DNA of 64,000 bases from an uncultured Candidatus Saccharibacteria bacterium (GTDB lineage Bacteria; Patescibacteriota; Minisyncoccia; Phycocordibacterales; Phycocordibacteraceae), in contig CAZZAT010000002.1 in the NCBI GenBank assembly GCA_964652615.1, positions 7,296-71,295 of the forward strand. The letters are read 5' to 3'. Both the position numbers and the translations under genes were made by a program. Every line of letters begins with the position of its first letter. Within the stretch, counting starts at the first letter, position 1. Positions 8,073 to 19,044 of the stretch are shown one piece after another. The notes under the pieces are model-generated. The model worked only from the letters and a program-made list of their open reading frames with translations, searched no databases and was not told the DNA's origin.

Positions 8073-11000
8073 TTAGAGCGGCTTTACGTTCTCAAGGGCA
8101 AGCGATATTTCTCCATTTCTTGAGGAAACTTTTGCCTTTATCAGCATGCAATTGCCGGCCGATAGAAGCTTGGCATGTTCCTTGAAAAGGCGCGGGAAGG
8201 CCACTGCTTCAATAGATCCTGTCTTATCCTCAAGCTTTAGAAACGCCATCTTCTCGCCGCCCTTGGTGAGTATCGCGCGCGCCTCAGTAATAAGGACAGG
8301 GAGTATGAGTGTCATGCCGACCACCGGTTCTTCAAGGAGCGCTGCAATCGTCGTACCTGCTTTCGATGACTTCTCGGCATGCGCATCAAGCGGATGCCCG
8401 GAGACATAGATACCAAGCAGTTCTTTTTCCCATGCAAGCTTGTCGATAAGGGAGGTAACGGAGTCTGCAGAAGGCAGGGTAAGCGTGGGCGGGGCAACGG
8501 CGCCAAACAAAGAGTCTTGCGCTTGGGGTGCTGTTGCGTCCCGATGGAAAGTGAGCAGGGTCTCGATGTGCGCAATGAGATGCGAGCGTTCGCCAAGCGC
8601 ATCAAGCGCACCGCACTTAATCAAGGACTCAAGCGACTTCTTATTCAGATTCTTCGATCCGATACGAACGAGAAACTCCGAAAGGGAAGCAAACGGACCC
8701 CTCTCACGCTCTTGCATGATACTTTCTGCAATACCTTCGCCAAAGTTCTTAATTGAAGAGAGGCCGAAGCGTATCTTTGTTCCCGCATCAACGATGGTAA
8801 AGGTAGAGCGACTTTCGTTGACGTCTGGAGGAAGCACTGGTATCGAAAGGCGCTCGCATTCAGCGGCAAGCACGGCAATCTTCTCAACATCGCCCGCGTC
8901 TGCGGTAAGAAGAGCGGCCATGTATTCAACAGGGTAGTTGGCCTTCATATAGGAAGTCTGATACGCCACTTTGCCGTAGCTTGCTGCGTGTGAGTTGTGC
9001 ACAATGATGTCGTTTGCAATGAAGTTTTGAAGAACAGACACAGAGAGGTCGTAGGTCATTTCTTCTCCATCAGGTTCAATACTGCGGATTTCATCCCAAA
9101 ACACGTCGCTTCTTGCATGCTCGGCAAGCGTCTTTGAAGAGAGGGCTACAGCAGTTTTCTCAAGCACTGCACGCGTATATCCGCGCTTTCGTGTGTCTTC
9201 ATAGAAAAGGCGTTCTGAAAGATTTGTACATCGTGCAAGTTCTGCTATAGGCACTCCTTGCCGTGCAGCTTCTGCACGTATGTGTTCGAGTATCTGCGCC
9301 GGAACAGTATCTGCTGTTCCTCGTCCTCGTGCATTGGTCCGTACGGAACAAAGGCGCACCAAAAGTGCGAGCGAATCGCGTTTTGTTCCGATAAGGTGTG
9401 CGCCAGCAGTTTTTTCAAACCGTGTAAGATTTTCTATACCCGTAACGGTAACGGTATACCCGATACGCAAGCTCCCGCGATACCAAAATTGTTTACGATG
9501 TATCGTTGAAAGTATTGAAAGGCGAAGAAGTACATGCTGTACGTCGTGCGCAAGGTGCTTAGAGCTGGTCGCATAGAACACCTGCTGATTTTTGAGGGAA
9601 ATAGCTCCATCTCCCTGCCACATCTTCCCGAGCATGAGTGCAAGAGAATCGTTGTTCCAGGTAAGCACTGAATCAGGAATTTCTTTCTCTGTAGCGCGCT
9701 TCCCTCGAATACCAAGTCTCTCTGCCCATACAAGCATGCCATTTTGTTCTTTCTGGGTACGTCTGCCTACATATGCGCTTATAGCAGCTTTTGAACGATT
9801 TAAGGTCACTTGTGTGCCCGGGAAGCAGAGCGCTGCACGCGAGAAATCTGCAATCTCATTTTCCTGTGTCGAGTACATGTATAAACCATGCGGATGGCAC
9901 AGATTTCCCTCCGAGAGCAAATATCCAAGCGCTGCCGCTTCGTGTGCTGGGGCTGCACAGGATTCCGTTGGTTCGGGGAGATGGCGTGGAACAGCGATAC
10001 GTGCGCCAGCAGACAGCTCGCCAAGCGGGCGCCACCCTGCAAATGTGAGCAGAGGATGATTGTCTGTTGCACGAATAGTACGGCCGGAACGGGTGGTAAG
10101 GCGGAAGACACGCTTTACGCCATTTTCTCTAACCCAAGAGCCTTGTCCCTCTACAAGCTTCTGGCCTTTCGACAAAGCGAGTACGGGCACTTTACCTTTC
10201 GTTTCAATAAGGGTTTTCAGTGATGTGCGAGAACCTGTTTTTGGATTGTAAATACACGTATCACCCGTTAAGCACTTATTAAACCCATACGCTGCAAAGG
10301 GTTCGATAAGTTTCCAAAGCTCTTCCGCACGCTTTTGTGGGAGCTTTCCATGCTCTACAAAGCCACTAATAAGCTTCTCGCGTTCCGCTTCCATCACTTC
10401 CGGAATCTTCTTACCCATCGCTTTGCGGAGCATGTCTGCCTGAAGCCACGAATAGCCGCCAAGCGTAATCGAGGTCAAAAGCACGTCGTCTTGGTACACC
10501 AGAAGGCCGTAGGAAGCGTCGAGGTAGTCTTTCATGCGCTCATCCATATACGTAATGAGCTTCGGGTTTCGTTTGCGCTCGATGTACTGCGGGATGGTTT
10601 CGATAGGGCCGGGGCGATAGAGCGCCACCATAGCGTTGATGTCATGGATGGTTGTAGGCCGGAGTTCCTTCAGATACCGAGTCATGCCCGAGCCGTTTAA
10701 CTGGAAGGTGCCTTCTGTTTCTCCGCGCGCAAGCATGGCAAAAGTCTTCTCGTCATCAAGCGGCACGTTTTCAATATCAATGACGATGCCGCGCGTTTCT
10801 CGCACGCGCTCCACCGAGTCTGCGAGAATGGCGAGGTTCTTGATGCCAAGGAAGTCGAACTTCAAAAGGCCCGCATCCTCAATGGAATGCATATCGTACT
10901 GGGTGATAAGCTTGCCTGTTTTTTGGTCGGTCTGAAGCGAGGTCCACTCGGTCAGCGGCGTAGGGGAAATAACGACGCCAGCGGCATGTACGCCCGTGTG

Positions 11001-12491
11001 GCGGGCAGAACCTTCAATACGCCGTGCAAGATCAATAATTTCCTTCACATCATCATCTTCTTGGTAGAGCTGCTTCAACTCTTCTTCCATCGTAAGCGCG
11101 CGGTCAATAGTCATAGGGAATCCTTGAGAGCCAAGGGGAATGAGCTTTGCAATGCGATCTCCCGTGCCGTATGCGTGTCCCAAAGCGCGCGCAACGTCGC
11201 GCACTGCCGCTCGCGCAAGCATGGTTCCAAAGGTGCCTATCTGCGCAACGTGGTCTTCACCATACTTTCTTTTTGCGTACGCAATCATCTCGTCGCGCCT
11301 ATCGTCGGCGAAGTCCATGTCGATGTCGGGCGCTGACGGACGCTCGGGGTTCAAGAAGCGCTCAAACGGCAGCTTGTATTTCATCGGGTCTACGTTGGTA
11401 ATGCGGGCAAGATAGGTAACTAGCGATCCTGCAACCGAGCCGCGAATGGTGGTTAGGATGTGGTTTTCGTGAGCGAAGTTGAGAAGGTCGGATACAACAA
11501 GGAAGTAAGGCGCATAACCCTTTTGCTTGATGACCGAGAGCTCGTATTCAATGCGTTTTTCAACTTCCGGTGTCTTCTCCATGCCGCGTGCAGACAATCC
11601 TGCATAGGCTTTTGCCCGAAGTTCTTCGTCGTGGTCGCTAAATCCTTCAGAGACCGCAAGCGCAGGGAACACCCATTTGCCAAGTTCAAATTCAAGAGTG
11701 CAGCGCTCTGCTATTTCTCCTGAACGGTCGACTGCCTCTCCCATATCTTTGAACCATGCGCGCATATTCTTTTCGGATACAAACGAGAAGTCTTCCTTTT
11801 CGTTGTATCCTTCGCTTCCTTGCTGGATGCGCCGCAATACCGCACATGCTTCGCGGTCATCAGGGGAGAGGTAGTACACATCATGCTGCGCAACGAGCGG
11901 CACGCCGCTTTCTTGCGAGAGCTTCTTAATCTGTTCCATCTTTTGCGCGTGCCCTTCTACCGATGGGTGGTGCGTAATTTCAAGGAAGACATTTTCTTTT
12001 CCGAAGATGCTTTGCCAATGAGCAAGAGCGGCCGCAGCTCCTTTTGCGTCGCCTCGTGAAAGCAATTGTGACGTGTCTCCTGCAAAAGAAGGAATGAGCG
12101 CAATGAGTCCTTTCGCATGTTTTTGCAGAAGCTCGCGGTCCATGCGCGGGCGCTCAAAAAAGCCATCGGTATACGAAGCAGTCACAAGCGCAAGCAAGTT
12201 CTTATACCCTTCCTGATTTTCAACAAGAAGCACGAGGCGCGAGCGCTTTTCATCTCGGTCGTGCACTAATCGTGATGCGGGAGCGATATAGGCATCAACA
12301 CCAAGCACTGCTTTAATGCCCGCCTTCTTCGCTTCTTTATAAAACTCAATTGCGCCATGCAGGTTGCCTTCATCGGTTAGGGCAAGCGCTTCCATGCCTT
12401 CCTTTTTTGCAGCCTCGACAAGCTCAGGCACTTTCGGAAGGGCTTTTAAGAAAGAGTAGTGGCTGTGGGTGTGTAGGTGAACGAATGCCAT
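8073..12491 (-). CDS. dnaE: DNA polymerase III alpha subunit (DnaE) interrupted by an in-frame intein
   Basis: An N-terminal PHP domain (MAFVHLHTHSHYSF), a polymerase core and a C-terminal OB fold. The conserved GFNK|SHAASY motif is split by a 427-aa insertion. Confidence 0.9.
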   Translation of the reverse strand: MAFVHLHTHSHYSFLKALPKVPELVEAAKKEGMEALALTDEGNLHGAIEFYKEAKKAGIKAVLGVDAYIAPASRLVHDRDEKRSRLVLLVENQEGYKNLLALVTASYTDGFFERPRMDRELLQKHAKGLIALIPSFAGDTSQLLSRGDAKGAAAALAHWQSIFGKENVFLEITHHPSVEGHAQKMEQIKKLSQESGVPLVAQHDVYYLSPDDREACAVLRRIQQGSEGYNEKEDFSFVSEKNMRAWFKDMGEAVDRSGEIAERCTLEFELGKWVFPALAVSEGFSDHDEELRAKAYAGLSARGMEKTPEVEKRIEYELSVIKQKGYAPYFLVVSDLLNFAHENHILTTIRGSVAGSLVTYLARITNVDPMKYKLPFERFLNPERPSAPDIDMDFADDRRDEMIAYAKRKYGEDHVAQIGTFGTMLARAAVRDVARALGHAYGTGDRIAKLIPLGSQGFPMTIDRALTMEEELKQLYQEDDDVKEIIDLARRIEGSARHTGVHAAGVVISPTPLTEWTSLQTDQKTGKLITQYDMHSIEDAGLLKFDFLGIKNLAILADSVERVRETRGIVIDIENVPLDDEKTFAMLARGETEGTFQLNGSGMTRYLKELRPTTIHDINAMVALYRPGPIETIPQYIERKRNPKLITYMDERMKDYLDASYGLLVYQDDVLLTSITLGGYSWLQADMLRKAMGKKIPEVMEAEREKLISGFVEHGKLPQKRAEELWKLIEPFAAYGFNKCLTGDTCIYNPKTGSRTSLKTLIETKGKVPVLALSKGQKLVEGQGSWVRENGVKRVFRLTTRSGRTIRATDNHPLLTFAGWRPLGELSAGARIAVPRHLPEPTESCAAPAHEAAALGYLLSEGNLCHPHGLYMYSTQENEIADFSRAALCFPGTQVTLNRSKAAISAYVGRRTQKEQNGMLVWAERLGIRGKRATEKEIPDSVLTWNNDSLALMLGKMWQGDGAISLKNQQVFYATSSKHLAHDVQHVLLRLSILSTIHRKQFWYRGSLRIGYTVTVTGIENLTRFEKTAGAHLIGTKRDSLALLVRLCSVRTNARGRGTADTVPAQILEHIRAEAARQGVPIAELARCTNLSERLFYEDTRKRGYTRAVLEKTAVALSSKTLAEHARSDVFWDEIRSIEPDGEEMTYDLSVSVLQNFIANDIIVHNSHAASYGKVAYQTSYMKANYPVEYMAALLTADAGDVEKIAVLAAECERLSIPVLPPDVNESRSTFTIVDAGTKIRFGLSSIKNFGEGIAESIMQERERGPFASLSEFLVRIGSKNLNKKSLESLIKCGALDALGERSHLIAHIETLLTFHRDATAPQAQDSLFGAVAPPTLTLPSADSVTSLIDKLAWEKELLGIYVSGHPLDAHAEKSSKAGTTIAALLEEPVVGMTLILPVLITEARAILTKGGEKMAFLKLEDKTGSIEAVAFPRLFKEHAKLLSAGNCMLIKAKVSSRNGEISLALENVKPL
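8994..10274 (-). mobile_element. Intein (427 aa) with LAGLIDADG-like homing endonuclease domain in dnaE
   Basis: Spans aa 740-1166 of DnaE. It starts with Cys1 (CLTGDTCIY, block A), has a TxxH block B (TDNH), LAGLIDADG-like motifs (LGYLLSEGNL and LALMLGKMWQGDGAI), and ends in VHN followed by a Ser +1 extein residue. Codons verified: 10272-10274 revcomp tgc (Cys) and 8994-8996 revcomp aac (Asn). Confidence 0.8.
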
Positions 12492-13460: not shown

Positions 13461-13814
13461 ATGTCCGTACGAATGCGCCACACCAGCTCGCATACGAGAA
13501 ACCGCCGAAGCCACCATGCTTTGAAGAACCGCGTTATCTTGAAAAACGAGGACGGTACGTCACGCCTTCCACACCGCATCGACGAAGCTACCGGCATGTA
13601 CCGCGGCAAGCAGATTGTCGAAAAACGCATCGTCAAGGAAAAGAAGAAGGATCATGAGAAGCGCCTCGCAGAGCACAAGCATGAGCACCCTGAAGGCGAA
13701 AAGGCCCCTATTCATACCGAAAAGGTTGAGGATGCTCCAAAGAAAGCTGGCGTTCTCGGTCGCGTCATGAAAGACAGAGCTCGCTCACGAAGCGGCATGG
13801 GCGGAGGAGCGTAA
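13461..13814 (+). CDS. rpmF: Ribosomal protein bL32 with a long Lys/Glu-rich C-terminal extension
   Basis: N-terminus MSVRMRHTSSHTRNRRSHHALK and the HRIDEATGMYRGKQIV motif match bL32; a KKKDHEKRLAEHKHEHPEGEK tail follows. Confidence 0.8.
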   Translation: MSVRMRHTSSHTRNRRSHHALKNRVILKNEDGTSRLPHRIDEATGMYRGKQIVEKRIVKEKKKDHEKRLAEHKHEHPEGEKAPIHTEKVEDAPKKAGVLGRVMKDRARSRSGMGGGA

Positions 13815-13838
13815 GCTTTCTTTTCCACATACTGTGCA

Positions 13839-13869
13839 CAGGAACGCGCGCCAAAGGCGCGCGTTCCTG
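13839..13869 (+). terminator. Strong hairpin (14-bp stem) after rpmF
   Basis: caggaacgcgcgcc-aaa-ggcgcgcgttcctg; the T-tract is weak. Confidence 0.45.
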
Positions 13870-13889
13870 CTACCGTGTACTTTAGATAC

Positions 13890-14786
13890 ATGGCAAACAG
13901 GCACCTTGCACGCTCGGTTGTTCTTCAGACCCTCTTTGAGTGGGATAGTGTTTCTGTACCGGAAGCCGAGGTGCCTGCCATTTTAGAGCGAAACGCCGCA
14001 GAATTTGGAGGCTCGGATACGGATAAGCCGTTCATGCAGGAGCTTCTCTCCGGAGTGCTTGCAAAGCATACCGATCTTGATGCCATCATCGTTAAGGCAG
14101 CGCCTGACTGGCCCCTTGAACGCATCGCTCCCATAGACCGCAATATTCTGCGCATCGGCCTCTACGAACTTCTCTTTTCTGATAGAGCGCAAGTGCCTCC
14201 TAAGGTTGCTATTAACGAAGCGATTGAGCTTGCAAAAGTGTTTGGCGGAGACTCCTCCGGAAGATTTATTAACGGCGTTTTGGGTGCGGTATATAAAGAG
14301 CTTGGAGAACCAGGCAAAGACGAGCAAGGAAAGAAAGAGAAGCAATCGCGCAAAGAACTCCCGCTTGAAAATCTTGCAGGCGCTATTGTCTACGCATACC
14401 ACGACGGCCAATACTATCTCGCGCTCGTTCATGACGTCTTTGGACGCTGGACGCTTTCAAAGGGCCATATTGGCGAAGGAGTAGCGCCTAAAGACGGCGT
14501 TGCAAAAGTGGTTAAAGATGAGATAGGGCTAGAAGGGAAGGTACTAGAGCAAATTGGCGAGAATGAGTACGTTGCTTCGCATCCCGAGAAAGGAAAAGTG
14601 CGAAAGCATGTGTACTTCTTCCTCGTTGAAGCTCCGTATGAGACGCTCGAACTTAAAAAGAGCGGCGGCCTCGATGATGCGAAGTGGTTTCGGCTCCCCG
14701 ACATCCTCGCCCTTAACTTCTATGACGACATGCTGCCGATAGTTACTGCAGCGGTGCAGAAGCTTTTGGATAAGAGTAGTGCTTAA
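13890..14786 (+). CDS. nusB: Transcription antitermination factor NusB fused to a C-terminal Nudix-like domain
   Basis: The N-terminal approximately 150 aa match NusB (LARSVVLQTLFEWD, INEAIELAKVFGGDSSGRFINGVLG). The C-terminal approximately 140 aa have a Nudix-like fold signature (GHIGEGVAPKDGVAKVVKDEIGLEG, with a degenerate Nudix box). Confidence 0.7.
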   Translation: MANRHLARSVVLQTLFEWDSVSVPEAEVPAILERNAAEFGGSDTDKPFMQELLSGVLAKHTDLDAIIVKAAPDWPLERIAPIDRNILRIGLYELLFSDRAQVPPKVAINEAIELAKVFGGDSSGRFINGVLGAVYKELGEPGKDEQGKKEKQSRKELPLENLAGAIVYAYHDGQYYLALVHDVFGRWTLSKGHIGEGVAPKDGVAKVVKDEIGLEGKVLEQIGENEYVASHPEKGKVRKHVYFFLVEAPYETLELKKSGGLDDAKWFRLPDILALNFYDDMLPIVTAAVQKLLDKSSA

Positions 14787-15056: not shown

Positions 15057-15578
15057 TTACTTACCGCGCAGGTGCGGCACGCCTTCGACTCTTATTCGAA
15101 CCTGAACTCCGTTGTGTTCGGTCGGATACGTTCCTTCTGGGACTTCGCAATACAGCCAGATAGAGACGTAATAGCTCGTCCCGTTTCTGCCGATGCCGCT
15201 TCCCATAAAGCTGTTCTTCCAGGGTTCTTGGGTTTTGAACTTTTCATCCAGTTGGTCTCGCGCTGCCAGAGCTTCTTTTCTAGTCGCTGCGTATTGGCGG
15301 AGTTTCGGGAATATGAGCTTAACGACTGCGACACTGAATAGATAGCATATGAATGAAACAGCGAGAGGCGCAAACGCGACAAACGGCAGTCGCGAGAACA
15401 AAACTGCCACTGTGAGGATTAGCATCAGCGGAATGGCCCATATTGCTATAAGAACGCATTGGGCACCCGCTCGGTACCATTCGCCGTAAAGGACATTGTC
15501 TTTGTTCATTTCTTCAATGAGGCGGTATTGGCTGTTGAAGGGCCAGAACCAGTCATTGTATTGAGGGCGCAAATCCAT
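15057..15578 (-). CDS. Hypothetical membrane protein (2 TM)
   Basis: An internal ATG (MDLRPQYNDWFW...) is preceded by AAGGAGGAG. The longer listed ORF would overlap the rnc start. Confidence 0.55.
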   Translation of the reverse strand: MDLRPQYNDWFWPFNSQYRLIEEMNKDNVLYGEWYRAGAQCVLIAIWAIPLMLILTVAVLFSRLPFVAFAPLAVSFICYLFSVAVVKLIFPKLRQYAATRKEALAARDQLDEKFKTQEPWKNSFMGSGIGRNGTSYYVSIWLYCEVPEGTYPTEHNGVQVRIRVEGVPHLRGK

Positions 15579-15677: not shown

Positions 15678-16361
15678 ATGGATTTCGCCACATACGCTAA
15701 GAAGCTCGGGCTTTCCTTCGCCAACCTCGACTTGCTTGAGGAGGCTTTGACGCACCGCTCGTACTTGAACGAGCATAAGAGCGCAAAGGCGCACAACGAG
15801 CGCCTTGAGTTTCTTGGAGACGCAGTCCTAGAACTCTCCGCTACTCGCTTTTTGTTTGACACGTATCCAGATAAGCCGGAAGGGGATTTGACCTCGTATC
15901 GTGCTGCGCTTGTGAATACCTACTCTATTTCAGAAGTGGCAGAAGCGCTTGGTATAAACGACATGCTGCTTCTTTCAAAAGGAGAGAAGCGCGATACGGG
16001 CCGTGCGCGCCAGATAATCCTTGCAAACGCATTTGAAGCGGTTGTGGGCGCCCTGTATCTCGACCAAGGGTATGAAGCAGCAGACGCGTTTCTTGGTAAG
16101 CACCTCTATCCAAAACTCGAAGGCATCATCAAGAAAGGCGCGTACCAAGATGCGAAGAGTCGCTTCCAAGAAGCAGCACAAGACAAACAGAGTGTTACCC
16201 CAAGCTATAAAACCATCCGCGAAGACGGTCCCGATCATGACCGTGAGTTCACCGTTGGTGTGTATTTGAAAAATGAAGAAGTGGCGAGAGGTTTAGGGAA
16301 GAGCAAGCAGGAAGCAGAGCAGAACGCTGCTGCAGTTGCTCTTGACAAGAAGGGTTGGTAA
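15678..16361 (+). CDS. rnc: Ribonuclease III
   Basis: Carries the RNase III signature HRSY...NERLEFLGDAVLEL and a C-terminal dsRBD. Confidence 0.9.
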   Translation: MDFATYAKKLGLSFANLDLLEEALTHRSYLNEHKSAKAHNERLEFLGDAVLELSATRFLFDTYPDKPEGDLTSYRAALVNTYSISEVAEALGINDMLLLSKGEKRDTGRARQIILANAFEAVVGALYLDQGYEAADAFLGKHLYPKLEGIIKKGAYQDAKSRFQEAAQDKQSVTPSYKTIREDGPDHDREFTVGVYLKNEEVARGLGKSKQEAEQNAAAVALDKKGW

Positions 16362-16775: not shown

Positions 16776-16806
16776 CGGGGATTCCTGAAAAGGAATCCCC
16801 GTTTTG
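16776..16806 (+). terminator. Intrinsic terminator
   Basis: cggggattcct-gaaa-aggaatccccg followed by ttttg. Confidence 0.65.
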
Positions 16807-16827
16807 CATACGGTATACTATTTCCTA

Positions 16828-19044
16828 ATGCTCAAGCGGCTCGAAATAGCCGGATTTAAGTCCTTTGCGCGCAAGACTGCGTTGGACTTTTCCTCTGCAA
16901 CAACCGCAATCGTGGGACCAAATGGTTCTGGCAAATCAAACGTTGCTGAAGCGTTTCGCTTCGCGCTTGGCGAACAATCCATGAAGAGCATGCGCGGCAA
17001 GCGAAGCGAAGACCTCATCTTCGCGGGTTCCCACGACACCGCGCGCCAGAATCGAGGAGCGGTGCTCATTACGTTTGATAACCGCAAGCGTATCTTCCCA
17101 AGACTCGATTTCGACGAGGTATCGGTTGAGCGCGTAGTGTATCGAGATGGTGCGAGCGAATACTCGATAAACGGTTCAAGAGTACGACTACGCGATGTGC
17201 AGGAGCTTCTTGCCTCTGCAAACATTGGTGAGACAGGGCACCACATCATTTCCCAAGGCGAGGCAGATCGCATCCTTCTTGCAAACCCCAAGGAGCGCCG
17301 CCTCATGCTTGAAGACGCGCTTGGTCTTAAGGTGTATGAATTTAAGAAGCAGGAGGCAATACGCAAGCTTGAGAAGACGCGTGAGAACGTAAAGGAAGTA
17401 GAGAGCCTTCGAAGAGAACTCGCACCTCATTTGAAGTTTCTTCAAAAGCAGGTAGAGAAGCTTGAGCGTGCAGAAGAACTCATACGAGGCCTGCAGGAAG
17501 CTGCTCGCGAATACTTCGCTATTGAAGAGCGATACCTTGATGATGAGCGAGAAATAAATGAGCGTTCAACGCGAGATGCACGAGAACGCCTTTCTGTTGC
17601 AGAGCAGGAACTGGGCGCTTTTTCAGATGAAACTTCAAGCGAGAGCGAAGGAATGAAGCGCATCGAAGGTGTGCGGCTTGCAGAGCGCGAGGTAGATCGT
17701 GCGCTTGGCGAGCGCGCGGAACTCTCCCGAGAAATTGGGCGCGTAGAAGGAGCTTTGTCTGAAGCAAAGCGCCGCAGCGCAGCCCTTGCGCGAGAGCCGT
17801 ACGTGAAAGTCTCTCGCGAGCATCTTGAAGCACTTCGCGATGAAGCGGAGAAGCAGGGAAGCATTGAGACGGATGAGCCGTCAGCGCTGAAGGCAGCGCT
17901 TCGAGGACTCAAGACAGCAGTTTCTGCATTCTTTGAACGCTTTGCGCTTCCTTCAGACGATTACCTAGCCGAAGAAGAACAGGCAGTCTTTCGTCTTGAA
18001 AGCGAAAAAGAAAAGCTTCTTGAGCGTGACCGCACCCTTGAAGCAAAAACAGAAGAAGCAAAGACAAAGCTTGAAAAAGCGCGCGAAGCACGTACTGCAT
18101 ACGATGAGACCGGCCGCGAAACTAAAGCGCGCATTCTCGAGCTTGCCGAGACTCGTGCAAAAGAAGAGTCTGCGCTTACCCGCGAAGAGGCGCGCGGAAA
18201 AGAGCTTAGCTATCTTCGCGAAGAATTGACAAGGGAGCGCGCTGAAGTCTTGGCGCTTGCCGGCAGCGCCGCATTTTCATACGAACCACTCGCTTCACTT
18301 CCACAAGAAGAGAGAAAAGTGCAGGAAGACCGTAAGCGTGCCATGGATCGCCTTAAGATCCGTATTGAAGAAGCGGGAGGTACCGGAGAAGAGGTGCGCA
18401 CTGAATATAACGACACAAAGAGTAGGGAAGAGTTTCTTGCGCGCGAGCTTGAAGACCTTCGCAAGTCTGCAGAAGGCCTTGAAGAGCTCATCACCAACCT
18501 CGATGAAGAACTCTCAAAATCATTTGCAGAAGGCCTTGCGAAAGTGAATGAGTCCTTCCGTGAGTTCTTTGCTCTTATGTTCGGCGGCGGCGGCGCAAAG
18601 CTCACCCTTGAAGATCTTTCGCCAAAAGCAAAAGAGGAAGAAGATCTTGATGAAGAGGAAGGAGAAGAGACTCCTGAACGCGTTGAGCGTCCGGGACTTG
18701 AGATAAGTGTGAACTTACCGAAGAAGAAGCTTCAGTCATTGATGCAGCTTTCAGGAGGCGAGCGAGCGCTCACCTCCATCGCCCTTATCTTTGCGATGAG
18801 CCAGGTGAACCCGCCGCCATTTCTTATTCTCGACGAAACAGATGCGGCGCTCGACGAAGCAAACAGCCGACGCTACGGCGATATGGTTGAACAGCTTGCA
18901 AAGAAGTCTCAGCTTATCGTCATTACACACAACCGCGAGACGATGAGCCGTGCTGGCATCCTCTACGGCGTTACGATGGGCGGGGATGGTATCAGCAAGC
19001 TTCTTTCGGTGAAGTTTGAAGAGGCGATGCAGGTGGCGAAATAG
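16828..19044 (+). CDS. smc: SMC-family chromosome segregation ATPase (short, about 739 aa)
   Basis: An N-terminal Walker A (GPNGSGKSN), extensive coiled coil, and a C-terminal signature LSGGERALTSIALIFAM plus Walker B LILDETDAALD. Confidence 0.8.
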   Translation: MLKRLEIAGFKSFARKTALDFSSATTAIVGPNGSGKSNVAEAFRFALGEQSMKSMRGKRSEDLIFAGSHDTARQNRGAVLITFDNRKRIFPRLDFDEVSVERVVYRDGASEYSINGSRVRLRDVQELLASANIGETGHHIISQGEADRILLANPKERRLMLEDALGLKVYEFKKQEAIRKLEKTRENVKEVESLRRELAPHLKFLQKQVEKLERAEELIRGLQEAAREYFAIEERYLDDEREINERSTRDARERLSVAEQELGAFSDETSSESEGMKRIEGVRLAEREVDRALGERAELSREIGRVEGALSEAKRRSAALAREPYVKVSREHLEALRDEAEKQGSIETDEPSALKAALRGLKTAVSAFFERFALPSDDYLAEEEQAVFRLESEKEKLLERDRTLEAKTEEAKTKLEKAREARTAYDETGRETKARILELAETRAKEESALTREEARGKELSYLREELTRERAEVLALAGSAAFSYEPLASLPQEERKVQEDRKRAMDRLKIRIEEAGGTGEEVRTEYNDTKSREEFLARELEDLRKSAEGLEELITNLDEELSKSFAEGLAKVNESFREFFALMFGGGGAKLTLEDLSPKAKEEEDLDEEEGEETPERVERPGLEISVNLPKKKLQSLMQLSGGERALTSIALIFAMSQVNPPPFLILDETDAALDEANSRRYGDMVEQLAKKSQLIVITHNRETMSRAGILYGVTMGGDGISKLLSVKFEEAMQVAK

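Follow-up and report, generated by a model that had tools for sequence, protein, structure and literature searches.

NusB fused to a C-terminal Nudix domain with a degenerate catalytic box in a lineage of Patescibacteria

The locus and the fused gene

Within a 64-kb stretch of contig CAZZAT010000002.1 (64,000 nucleotides; hereafter the window), the forward strand carries a gene, designated here nusB-nudix, that joins the transcription factor NusB to a C-terminal Nudix domain in one open reading frame (ORF; Table 1). NusB is an rRNA antitermination factor that binds boxA RNA together with S10. Few transcription elongation factors are as well conserved or as well studied, and the canonical protein normally consists of a single domain of about 140 residues. 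The ORF runs from an ATG at 13890 to a TAA at 14784-14786. Starting instead at an in-frame GTG, at 13875, would lengthen the protein by five residues (303 in total); because the homologues begin with MANRHLAR, with M1 to H5 invariant, the ATG at 13890 was taken as the true start. The original prediction had proposed a NusB core, a charged linker, and a Nudix-fold domain of about 140 residues within one protein of 298 residues, and this architecture was confirmed by the reading frame, the Pfam matches, an AlphaFold2 model of the full protein built from 119 sequences, and Foldseek.

Table 1 Features of the nusB-nudix locus (positions refer to the window; domain residues refer to the fused protein)
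Feature	Position	Strand	Basis or remark
nusB-nudix fusion gene	13890..14786	+	Single uninterrupted ORF, 298 residues; NusB and NUDIX Pfam domains in one protein
NusB domain, residues 1-138, all-helical	13890..14303	+	PF01029, TIGR01951, PDB matches, AlphaFold2
Linker, residues 139-157: conserved GEPGKD, then variable K/E-rich part	14304..14360	+	Predicted local distance difference test (pLDDT), alignment
Nudix-fold domain, residues 158-295	14361..14774	+	PF00293, PDB phmmer, Foldseek, AlphaFold2
Degenerate Nudix box, residues 192-214: GHIGEGVAPKDGVAKVVKDEIGL	14463..14531	+	Alignment to Aquifex Ap4A hydrolase, MutT, RppH
Perfect 14-bp GC-rich hairpin, CAGGAACGCGCGCC[AAA]GGCGCGCGTTCCTG	13839..13869	+	Between rpmF stop (13814) and nusB-nudix start (13890)
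rpmF (ribosomal protein L32), upstream neighbour	13461..13814	+	PF01783 at residues 6-55
rnc (RNase III), downstream neighbour	15678..16361	+	Ribonuclease_3 and dsrm Pfam matches; likely Met start 15678, mechanical ORF start 15459
Opposite-strand ORF, about 173 residues, hydrophobic membrane-like segments	15057-15578, possibly to 15794	-	Between nusB-nudix and rnc

As judged by profile and sequence comparison, residues 1-138 are a genuine NusB. The Pfam profile PF01029 matched residues 7-136 (E=9e-35, 120 bits, cut-off 23.1), and the NCBIfam nusB equivalog TIGR01951 scored 125.5 bits against a cut-off of 88.35. When the PDB was searched with phmmer, the NusB proteins of E. coli, T. maritima, M. 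tuberculosis, and Aquifex were recovered at E=1e-13 to 1e-19, and the N-terminal 142 residues matched E. coli NusB chains at E~1e-18, including those in the antitermination-complex structures 5lm7 and 6tqn. The AlphaFold2 model placed six helices in this half, from H4-21 to H121-138, with block pLDDT values mostly of 79-97. This half is therefore like NusB of E. coli, Aquifex, and M. tuberculosis at the equivalog level and shares their all-helical fold; the protein differs from the canonical one in its extension of about 160 residues, made up of linker and Nudix domain, and in the position of its gene between rpmF and rnc.

These matches bear on a different view of the N-terminal half, namely that it is a NusB-like RNA-targeting module, comparable to the N-domain of RsmB, which would bring the Nudix domain to rRNA independently of antitermination. 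RsmB (Sun), a 16S rRNA methyltransferase, uses its NusB-like domain in this way and shows that a NusB fold can be linked covalently to an enzyme domain with rRNA as its target; weak matches to RsmB models were obtained. However, these matches covered the N-domain only and reached at most 57 bits against cut-offs of 269-540 (57 vs 319 bits), whereas TIGR01951 was above its cut-off, and the best PDB matches were to authentic NusB. The NusB-like domain of RsmB is divergent and is not the NusB of the cell, while the half described here exceeds the equivalog threshold and has a Nudix domain as its partner instead of a methyltransferase, a domain for which Pfam gave no match in the protein. No second NusB-like or Nudix sequence was found within the window, and the gene occupies a single fixed position conserved across the lineage. 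A targeting role of this kind is therefore very unlikely.

The two domains are connected by a flexible linker whose residues 141-152 are predicted to be disordered (pLDDT <50). Residues P141, G142, K143, and G147 are invariant among close relatives, and the GEPGKD motif recurs in many divergent members; the remainder of the linker varies in length.

The C-terminal domain has a Nudix fold

The original prediction would have fallen had the C-terminal domain lacked a Nudix fold, and such a fold was found both by PF00293 and by Foldseek. The NUDIX profile matched residues 178-281 (E=1.8e-10), scoring 41.4 bits when the whole protein was searched and 43.7 bits when only the domain was, against a cut-off of 21.1. 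In the AlphaFold2 model, with a whole-protein mean pLDDT of 85.5, residues 159-295 formed an α/β domain. Searching the PDB with this domain by phmmer gave as top match 3i7u, the Aquifex Ap4A hydrolase aq_158 (E=1.6e-6), and the Nudix domain of AraR was also among the sequence matches. Foldseek returned 519 PDB matches at E<=1e-3, and all 50 matches listed were Nudix-domain proteins. The best target TM-score, 0.87 with a root-mean-square deviation of 2.5 Å, was obtained for 3i7u, followed by 0.85 for 1vc8, the Ap6A hydrolase Ndx1 of Thermus; the lowest E-value belonged to the non-catalytic Nudix domain of NrtR (3gz8), and BdRppH, Dcp2, and mycobacterial MutT1 were among the other fold matches.

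With Ap(n)A hydrolase-type Nudix proteins (aq_158/3i7u, Ndx1/1vc8, and Chlamydia CT771) and RppH the domain shares size and topology, with target TM-scores of 0.82-0.87 and about 25% identity. It differs from them in that it is fused to NusB and in that the equivalents of E44 and E53 are Val, that of R52 is Lys, and that of E56 is Asp. One relative, P0215, is a true standalone protein of 140 residues with a canonical box, encoded in an unrelated, metabolically rich context outside Patescibacteria. Its existence indicates that the fused domain descends from small free-standing Nudix proteins resembling Ap(n)A hydrolases, and sequence comparison assigns the Nudix half to this small Ap(n)A-hydrolase/RppH-like branch.

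A degenerate catalytic box

In the alignment to the Aquifex Ap4A hydrolase, MutT, and RppH, the box of the fused protein reads G192-HIGEG-V198-APKDGVA-K206-V207-V-K-D210-E211-I-G213-L. The numbering of the E. coli MutT and RppH sequences in this alignment fits the published span of the Nudix motif in RppH, residues 38-60 (PMC6061791). By this alignment V198 corresponds to E44, K206 to R52, V207 to E53, D210 to E56, and E211 to E57. Two of the four signature Glu (E44 and E53) are thus replaced by Val, and R52 and E56 by the conservative substitutes Lys and Asp. The canonical pattern G-x5-E-x7-R-E-U-x-E-E-x-G-U had no match in the protein, nor did the literal motif that had originally been read from it, G-x5-E-x7-[KR]-x3-EIGLEG, since no Glu follows G-x5. 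That the box is degenerate held true; the degree of degeneration had been understated, given that the equivalents of E44 and E53 are both Val.

In RppH, the single substitution E53A yields a catalytically inactive enzyme (PMC6061791). The module had been proposed to sense or cleave nucleotide-derived signals or RNA 5' caps at the transcription complex; because V198 and V207 stand in for E44 and E53, K206 for R52, and D210 for E56, cleavage is unlikely for this particular protein. E224 and E226, in an ENEY motif, were considered as compensatory acids and were rejected, being equally conserved in members with canonical boxes. The family-invariant residues K191 and K239 align with Q37 and Q95 of RppH; the paper examined makes no mention of either Gln, and no role in substrate contact is claimed.

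Box states and selection in the family

The state of the box was surveyed in 120 fused proteins, comprising 79 species sequences (the query and 78 locus proteins) and 41 divergent cluster representatives. A perfect G-E-RE-EE-G box was retained in 27 of the 120. At position 207, the remaining proteins had V (48), I (13), K (10), A (9), G (4), or other residues. Conservation at the catalytic positions was 0.28 for E207, 0.50 for E198, 0.72 for E210, and 0.78 for R206, as against 0.99 for W187, T188, K191, and Y278, 0.98 for W266, 0.96 for D182 and Y227, and 0.94 for E211. Since the Glu at 198, 207, and 210 vary while W187, T188, K191, Y227, W266, and Y278 are kept in at least 96% of the sequences, selection maintains something other than the canonical metal-binding triad. 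Among 121 close sequences the consensus was G-x5-[P/A/S/V]-x7-R-V-V-x-E-E-x-G-L, and neither E198 nor E207 occurred in any of them. For the clade of the query the consensus read G-x5-[PAS]-x7-R-[VI]-V-x-E-E-x-G-L, again with neither Glu.

On a rough neighbour-joining tree, canonical boxes were scattered over deep and shallow branches amid many degenerate states. The clade of the query formed one group, and locus protein L045 (GERVEEG) resembles an intermediate. The simplest reading, which rests on this neighbour-joining tree only, is that an intact box is ancestral and has been lost repeatedly. As read from the alignment, two signature Glu are replaced in the clade of the query, and the query additionally carries the R-to-K and E-to-D changes. 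Such a series from intact to degenerate boxes within one orthologous fusion constitutes a natural experiment in the conversion of an enzyme domain into a binding or structural module.

The degenerate Nudix half is not decaying. The ratio of nonsynonymous to synonymous substitution rates (dN/dS) was estimated pairwise by the Nei-Gojobori method within the degenerate-box clade. Because dS was large in several pairs the values are approximate, at 0.024 for the query and L001, 0.047 for L003-L004, 0.004 for L007-L008, 0.057 for L009-L011, and 0.065 for L026-L027 in the Nudix half. Over all pairs with an estimate the range was 0.004-0.075 for the Nudix half compared with 0.015-0.10 for the NusB half. 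Purifying selection on the degenerate half is as strong as on the NusB half; this direction is clear, and the ratios themselves are approximate.

Part of this evidence could be taken to mean that the domain is an active hydrolase. It would either work on the nascent transcript at the antitermination complex, through RppH-like 5' pyrophosphohydrolase or Np(n)N/NAD decapping activity, or hydrolyse Ap(n)A, with other acidic residues taking the place of the missing Glu. The nearest relatives of solved structure are active Ap4A and Ap6A hydrolases, RppH and Dcp2 are among the fold matches, E211 is 94% conserved, D210/E210, D262/D263, and E224/E226 are retained, 27 of 120 relatives have a perfect box, and purifying selection is strong. 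Against this, the equivalent of E53, whose mutation to Ala inactivates RppH, is Val, and E44, R52, and E56 are changed as well. E207 has been lost in 72% of the family and in many independent ways, which would be unexpected if hydrolysis were selected, and E224/E226 are equally present alongside canonical boxes, so that they are not compensatory novelties. Hydrolysis by the protein in the window therefore appears unlikely, though it deserves serious consideration, while cleavage by the 27 relatives with canonical boxes is plausible from their sequences.

Distribution of the fusion

A profile of the C-terminal domain was searched against species-representative genomes, at least 596 of which encode a relative, and locus statistics were taken from the best 80 loci. 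Those named among these 80 were Patescibacteria, namely Kaiser-, Adler-, Lloyd-, Nomura-, and Yonathbacteria. A single ORF of 295-314 residues, without internal stops, spans both domains in 79 of the 80. All 120 homologues listed, at 75-94% identity, were about 300 residues long with both Pfam domains; where named, they are annotated as NusB from metagenome-assembled genomes (MAGs) of Paceibacterota, Parcubacteria, or Patescibacteria, a database label that conceals the additional Nudix domain. A survey of NusB architectures in related genomes, proposed as a check in the original prediction, thus showed the fusion to be kept across a large lineage, that of Paceibacteria-type Patescibacteria. 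Searching 1.84 billion cluster representatives with the C-terminal domain gave 141 clusters at E<1e-10; an N-terminal NusB was visible in 60 of the best 150 cluster matches, and many of the others were fragments.

The same counts address the possibility of an artefact, in which a missed stop, a frameshift, or a chimeric assembly would have joined nusB to a separate downstream Nudix gene; a missed stop had been named in the original prediction as a finding that would overturn it. In favour of this, the NusB and Nudix halves of L059, one of the 80 loci, do not share a frame, and the protein library contains many apparently standalone matches of about 100-180 residues. However, no break in the frame is seen in the gene of the window or in 79 of the 80 loci, which come from independent species genomes, the 120 homologues listed all have both domains, and the sampled standalone protein P0135 proved to be a fragment at a contig edge. 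An artefact is effectively ruled out by these results.

Candidates for gene fission were likewise reduced by inspection. P0135 was rejected as a standalone Nudix protein, the contig-edge fragment being followed by rnc, and P0163, on a 1-kb contig, was uninformative, which left P0215 as the only genuine standalone protein among those examined. The halves in different frames in L059 may reflect a frameshift, a pseudogene, or a sequencing error, and the 404-residue reading of L061, with an N-terminal extension, probably results from start-codon choice. Several MAGs with this locus (L001, L003, L004, L011, L021, and others) are titled Candidatus Saccharibacteria or Bacillota; with 75-92% identity to loci of Paceibacterota and Kaiserbacteria, these titles look like taxonomic mislabels. 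Four gene calls, which may be wrong, place the same Nudix subfamily in other predicted architectures: Sigma70_r4, DnaA_C HTH, and NUDIX in P0219 (379 residues); an Endonuclease V fragment and NUDIX in P0149; an unassigned N-terminal region of 316 residues, NusB, and NUDIX in P0208 (577 residues); and a double NUDIX in P0252.

Both domains are known, and fused proteins are present in public databases under the name NusB. Literature on NusB and Nudix, NusB and Patescibacteria, and Nudix and the candidate phyla radiation yielded no published description of a NusB-Nudix fusion, which itself is apparently undescribed in papers.

Gene order around nusB-nudix

Across the 80 loci the order was dnaE (opposite strand), rnhB, rpmF (L32), nusB-nudix, rnc, and smc. 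The gene for L32 lay upstream of nusB-nudix in 75 loci. In 78, rnc lay downstream on the nusB-nudix strand; the median distance between the two genes was 73 nucleotides, and in 57 loci it did not exceed 150. Pfam matches confirmed the neighbours in the window itself. The arrangement extends to three divergent loci (L086, L087, and L088) that are 28-36% identical in the Nudix half, in which RNase III directly follows NusB-Nudix; in L086 the stop codon of nusB-nudix overlaps the start codon of rnc. L32 is encoded immediately upstream in L086 and L088, and no L32 gene was called in L087. The presence of a relative in at least 596 species genomes, with the fusion kept lineage-wide beside RNase III, suggests that the antitermination complex is physically connected with nucleotide or RNA 5'-end chemistry in a way not yet described.

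Proposed role of the Nudix half

Our preferred, though tentative, reading is that the Nudix half, impaired in hydrolysis, is attached to the rRNA antitermination complex as a binding or structural module. Of the two activities first suggested for the module at the transcription complex, this retains sensing or binding, which is plausible. Inside the elongating RNA polymerase complex, the NusB half would dock on the boxA element of the pre-rRNA leader, and docking would hold the Nudix half beside the 5' leader of the nascent transcript. There, in this organism, the Nudix half would bind rather than cut, or would be structural. A possible ligand is one of nucleotide-diphosphate type, such as the 5' tri- or diphosphate of the leader or its capped end; alternatively, the Nudix half may supply one more protein subunit, much as SuhB does in E. 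coli. Either role could help to couple rRNA transcription to processing of the leader by the RNase III encoded alongside, and in relatives with canonical boxes the same module probably hydrolyses its ligand, be it a 5' triphosphate, an Np(n)N cap, or free Ap(n)A.

Known systems offer partial parallels. The boxA element anchored on NusB has been proposed to keep the leader near RNA polymerase for formation of the leader-trailer helix that RNase III cleaves (PMC10250234), and genetic links between Nus factors and RNase III have been reported (PMC4807359). SuhB of E. coli has a metabolic-enzyme fold and is part of the NusB-containing rRNA complex, where its main role is probably not enzymatic (PMC4807359). 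It differs in being an inositol monophosphatase fold on a separate, dimeric polypeptide, whereas the Nudix domain is fused, and a comparable role for the latter is inferred only. In the NrtR family, loss of hydrolysis accompanies a perturbed Nudix signature although ADP-ribose is still bound, and the signature of some members is intact (PMC2330246).

The parallel with NrtR and AraR, in which a Nudix domain is joined to a transcription-related module and intact and perturbed, non-hydrolytic ligand-binding members occur in one family (PMC2330246), also raises another explanation. By analogy, the Nudix half might be a sensor: on binding free ADP-ribose, Ap4A, (p)ppGpp, or a similar nucleotide metabolite, it would allosterically adjust NusB and rRNA antitermination to the metabolic state of the cell. 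The best Foldseek E-value was indeed for the NrtR Nudix domain bound to ADP-ribose, AraR appeared in the sequence search, and NrtR shows the same mixture of intact and perturbed signatures within a single transcription-linked Nudix fusion family. However, the linker is flexible and variable in length and no inter-domain interface is predicted, which leaves no obvious allosteric route; no ligand-specific motif was identified, and the conserved neighbours are rRNA and ribosome genes instead of a metabolic pathway. NrtR has an N-terminal Nudix domain with a winged-helix DNA-binding partner, whereas here the Nudix domain is C-terminal, its partner is an RNA-binding elongation factor, and specificity for ADP-ribose is without support; the NrtR model NF050029 did not match the query, and Pfam showed NusB and NUDIX only, with no winged-helix domain. 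Taken together, allosteric sensing of this kind seems unlikely.

Several observations weigh against a binding or structural module coupled to rRNA synthesis. The predicted TM-score of the AlphaFold2 model was 0.55, that is, no fixed arrangement between the NusB and Nudix domains was predicted. Curated Nudix subfamily models in NCBIfam gave no match at cut-off, canonical-box relatives included; the best sub-threshold matches were to the mycobacterial MutT1 N-domain and to RppH, whose model NF001936 scored 15.6-17.5 bits here and at most 39 bits in canonical-box relatives against a cut-off of 118. Within the degenerate box and its surroundings, D210, E211, and nearby D262/D263 are still present, and through them a reduced metal site with residual or altered chemistry is possible. 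No rRNA, tRNA, or Rfam matches were found in the window, hence no rRNA operon or boxA there; because of this, it is homology to NusB and the neighbouring genes that connect the fusion with rRNA. Unusually for the family, nusB-nudix and rnc are about 890 nucleotides apart in the window, with an ORF on the opposite strand in between, which makes their co-transcription unlikely in this organism. That ORF had no Pfam match and no homologues in the 80 related loci, and it appears to be an insertion, specific to this lineage, by which the operon is interrupted.

A more far-reaching version of the binding-module proposal, to which we attach only a low probability, is that the Nudix domain of NusB in Paceibacteria belongs, as an integral and largely non-catalytic subunit, to the machinery that transcribes and processes rRNA. 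By capturing the 5' tri- or diphosphate or the capped end of the nascent leader, or by standing in for SuhB as a scaffold, it would keep the leader attached to RNA polymerase for processing by RNase III. It would also have been converted repeatedly into a reader of RNA ends, with canonical-box lineages still hydrolysing the end. The fusion could help to reveal the part played by the antitermination complex in the rRNA maturation of minimal-genome organisms.

Further features of the locus

Upstream of nusB-nudix, the RNA fold of positions 13812-13895 had an energy of -37.5 kcal/mol (z=-7.2 compared with shuffled sequences), and the hairpin lying there is not followed by a run of T. Perfect hairpins of at least 9 bp occurred within 110 nucleotides upstream of the gene in 50 of 79 related loci, with unrelated stem sequences, and many of them end 20-40 nucleotides 5' of the start codon. 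The hairpin in the window, immediately upstream of the gene of an antitermination factor, could be a terminator of rpmF, an attenuator, or a site for RNase III or other processing.

The L32 protein of the window has 117 residues, of which residues 6-55 alone match the L32p profile; the C-terminal remainder is rich in K, E, and H, and the length of the L32 tblastn match differs between relatives. DnaE (8073-12491, reverse strand) has 1472 residues with an apparent intein-like insert, from ...NKCLTGDTCIY... to ...IIVHNSHAAS..., and DnaE of the divergent relative L087 has 1103 residues. Bacterial SMC proteins typically have about 1200 residues. The SMC_N-family protein encoded downstream of rnc has 746 residues in the window (16804-19044, forward strand), 852 in L086 (6054-8612), and 696 in L088 (6624-8714), which suggests a shortened coiled coil.

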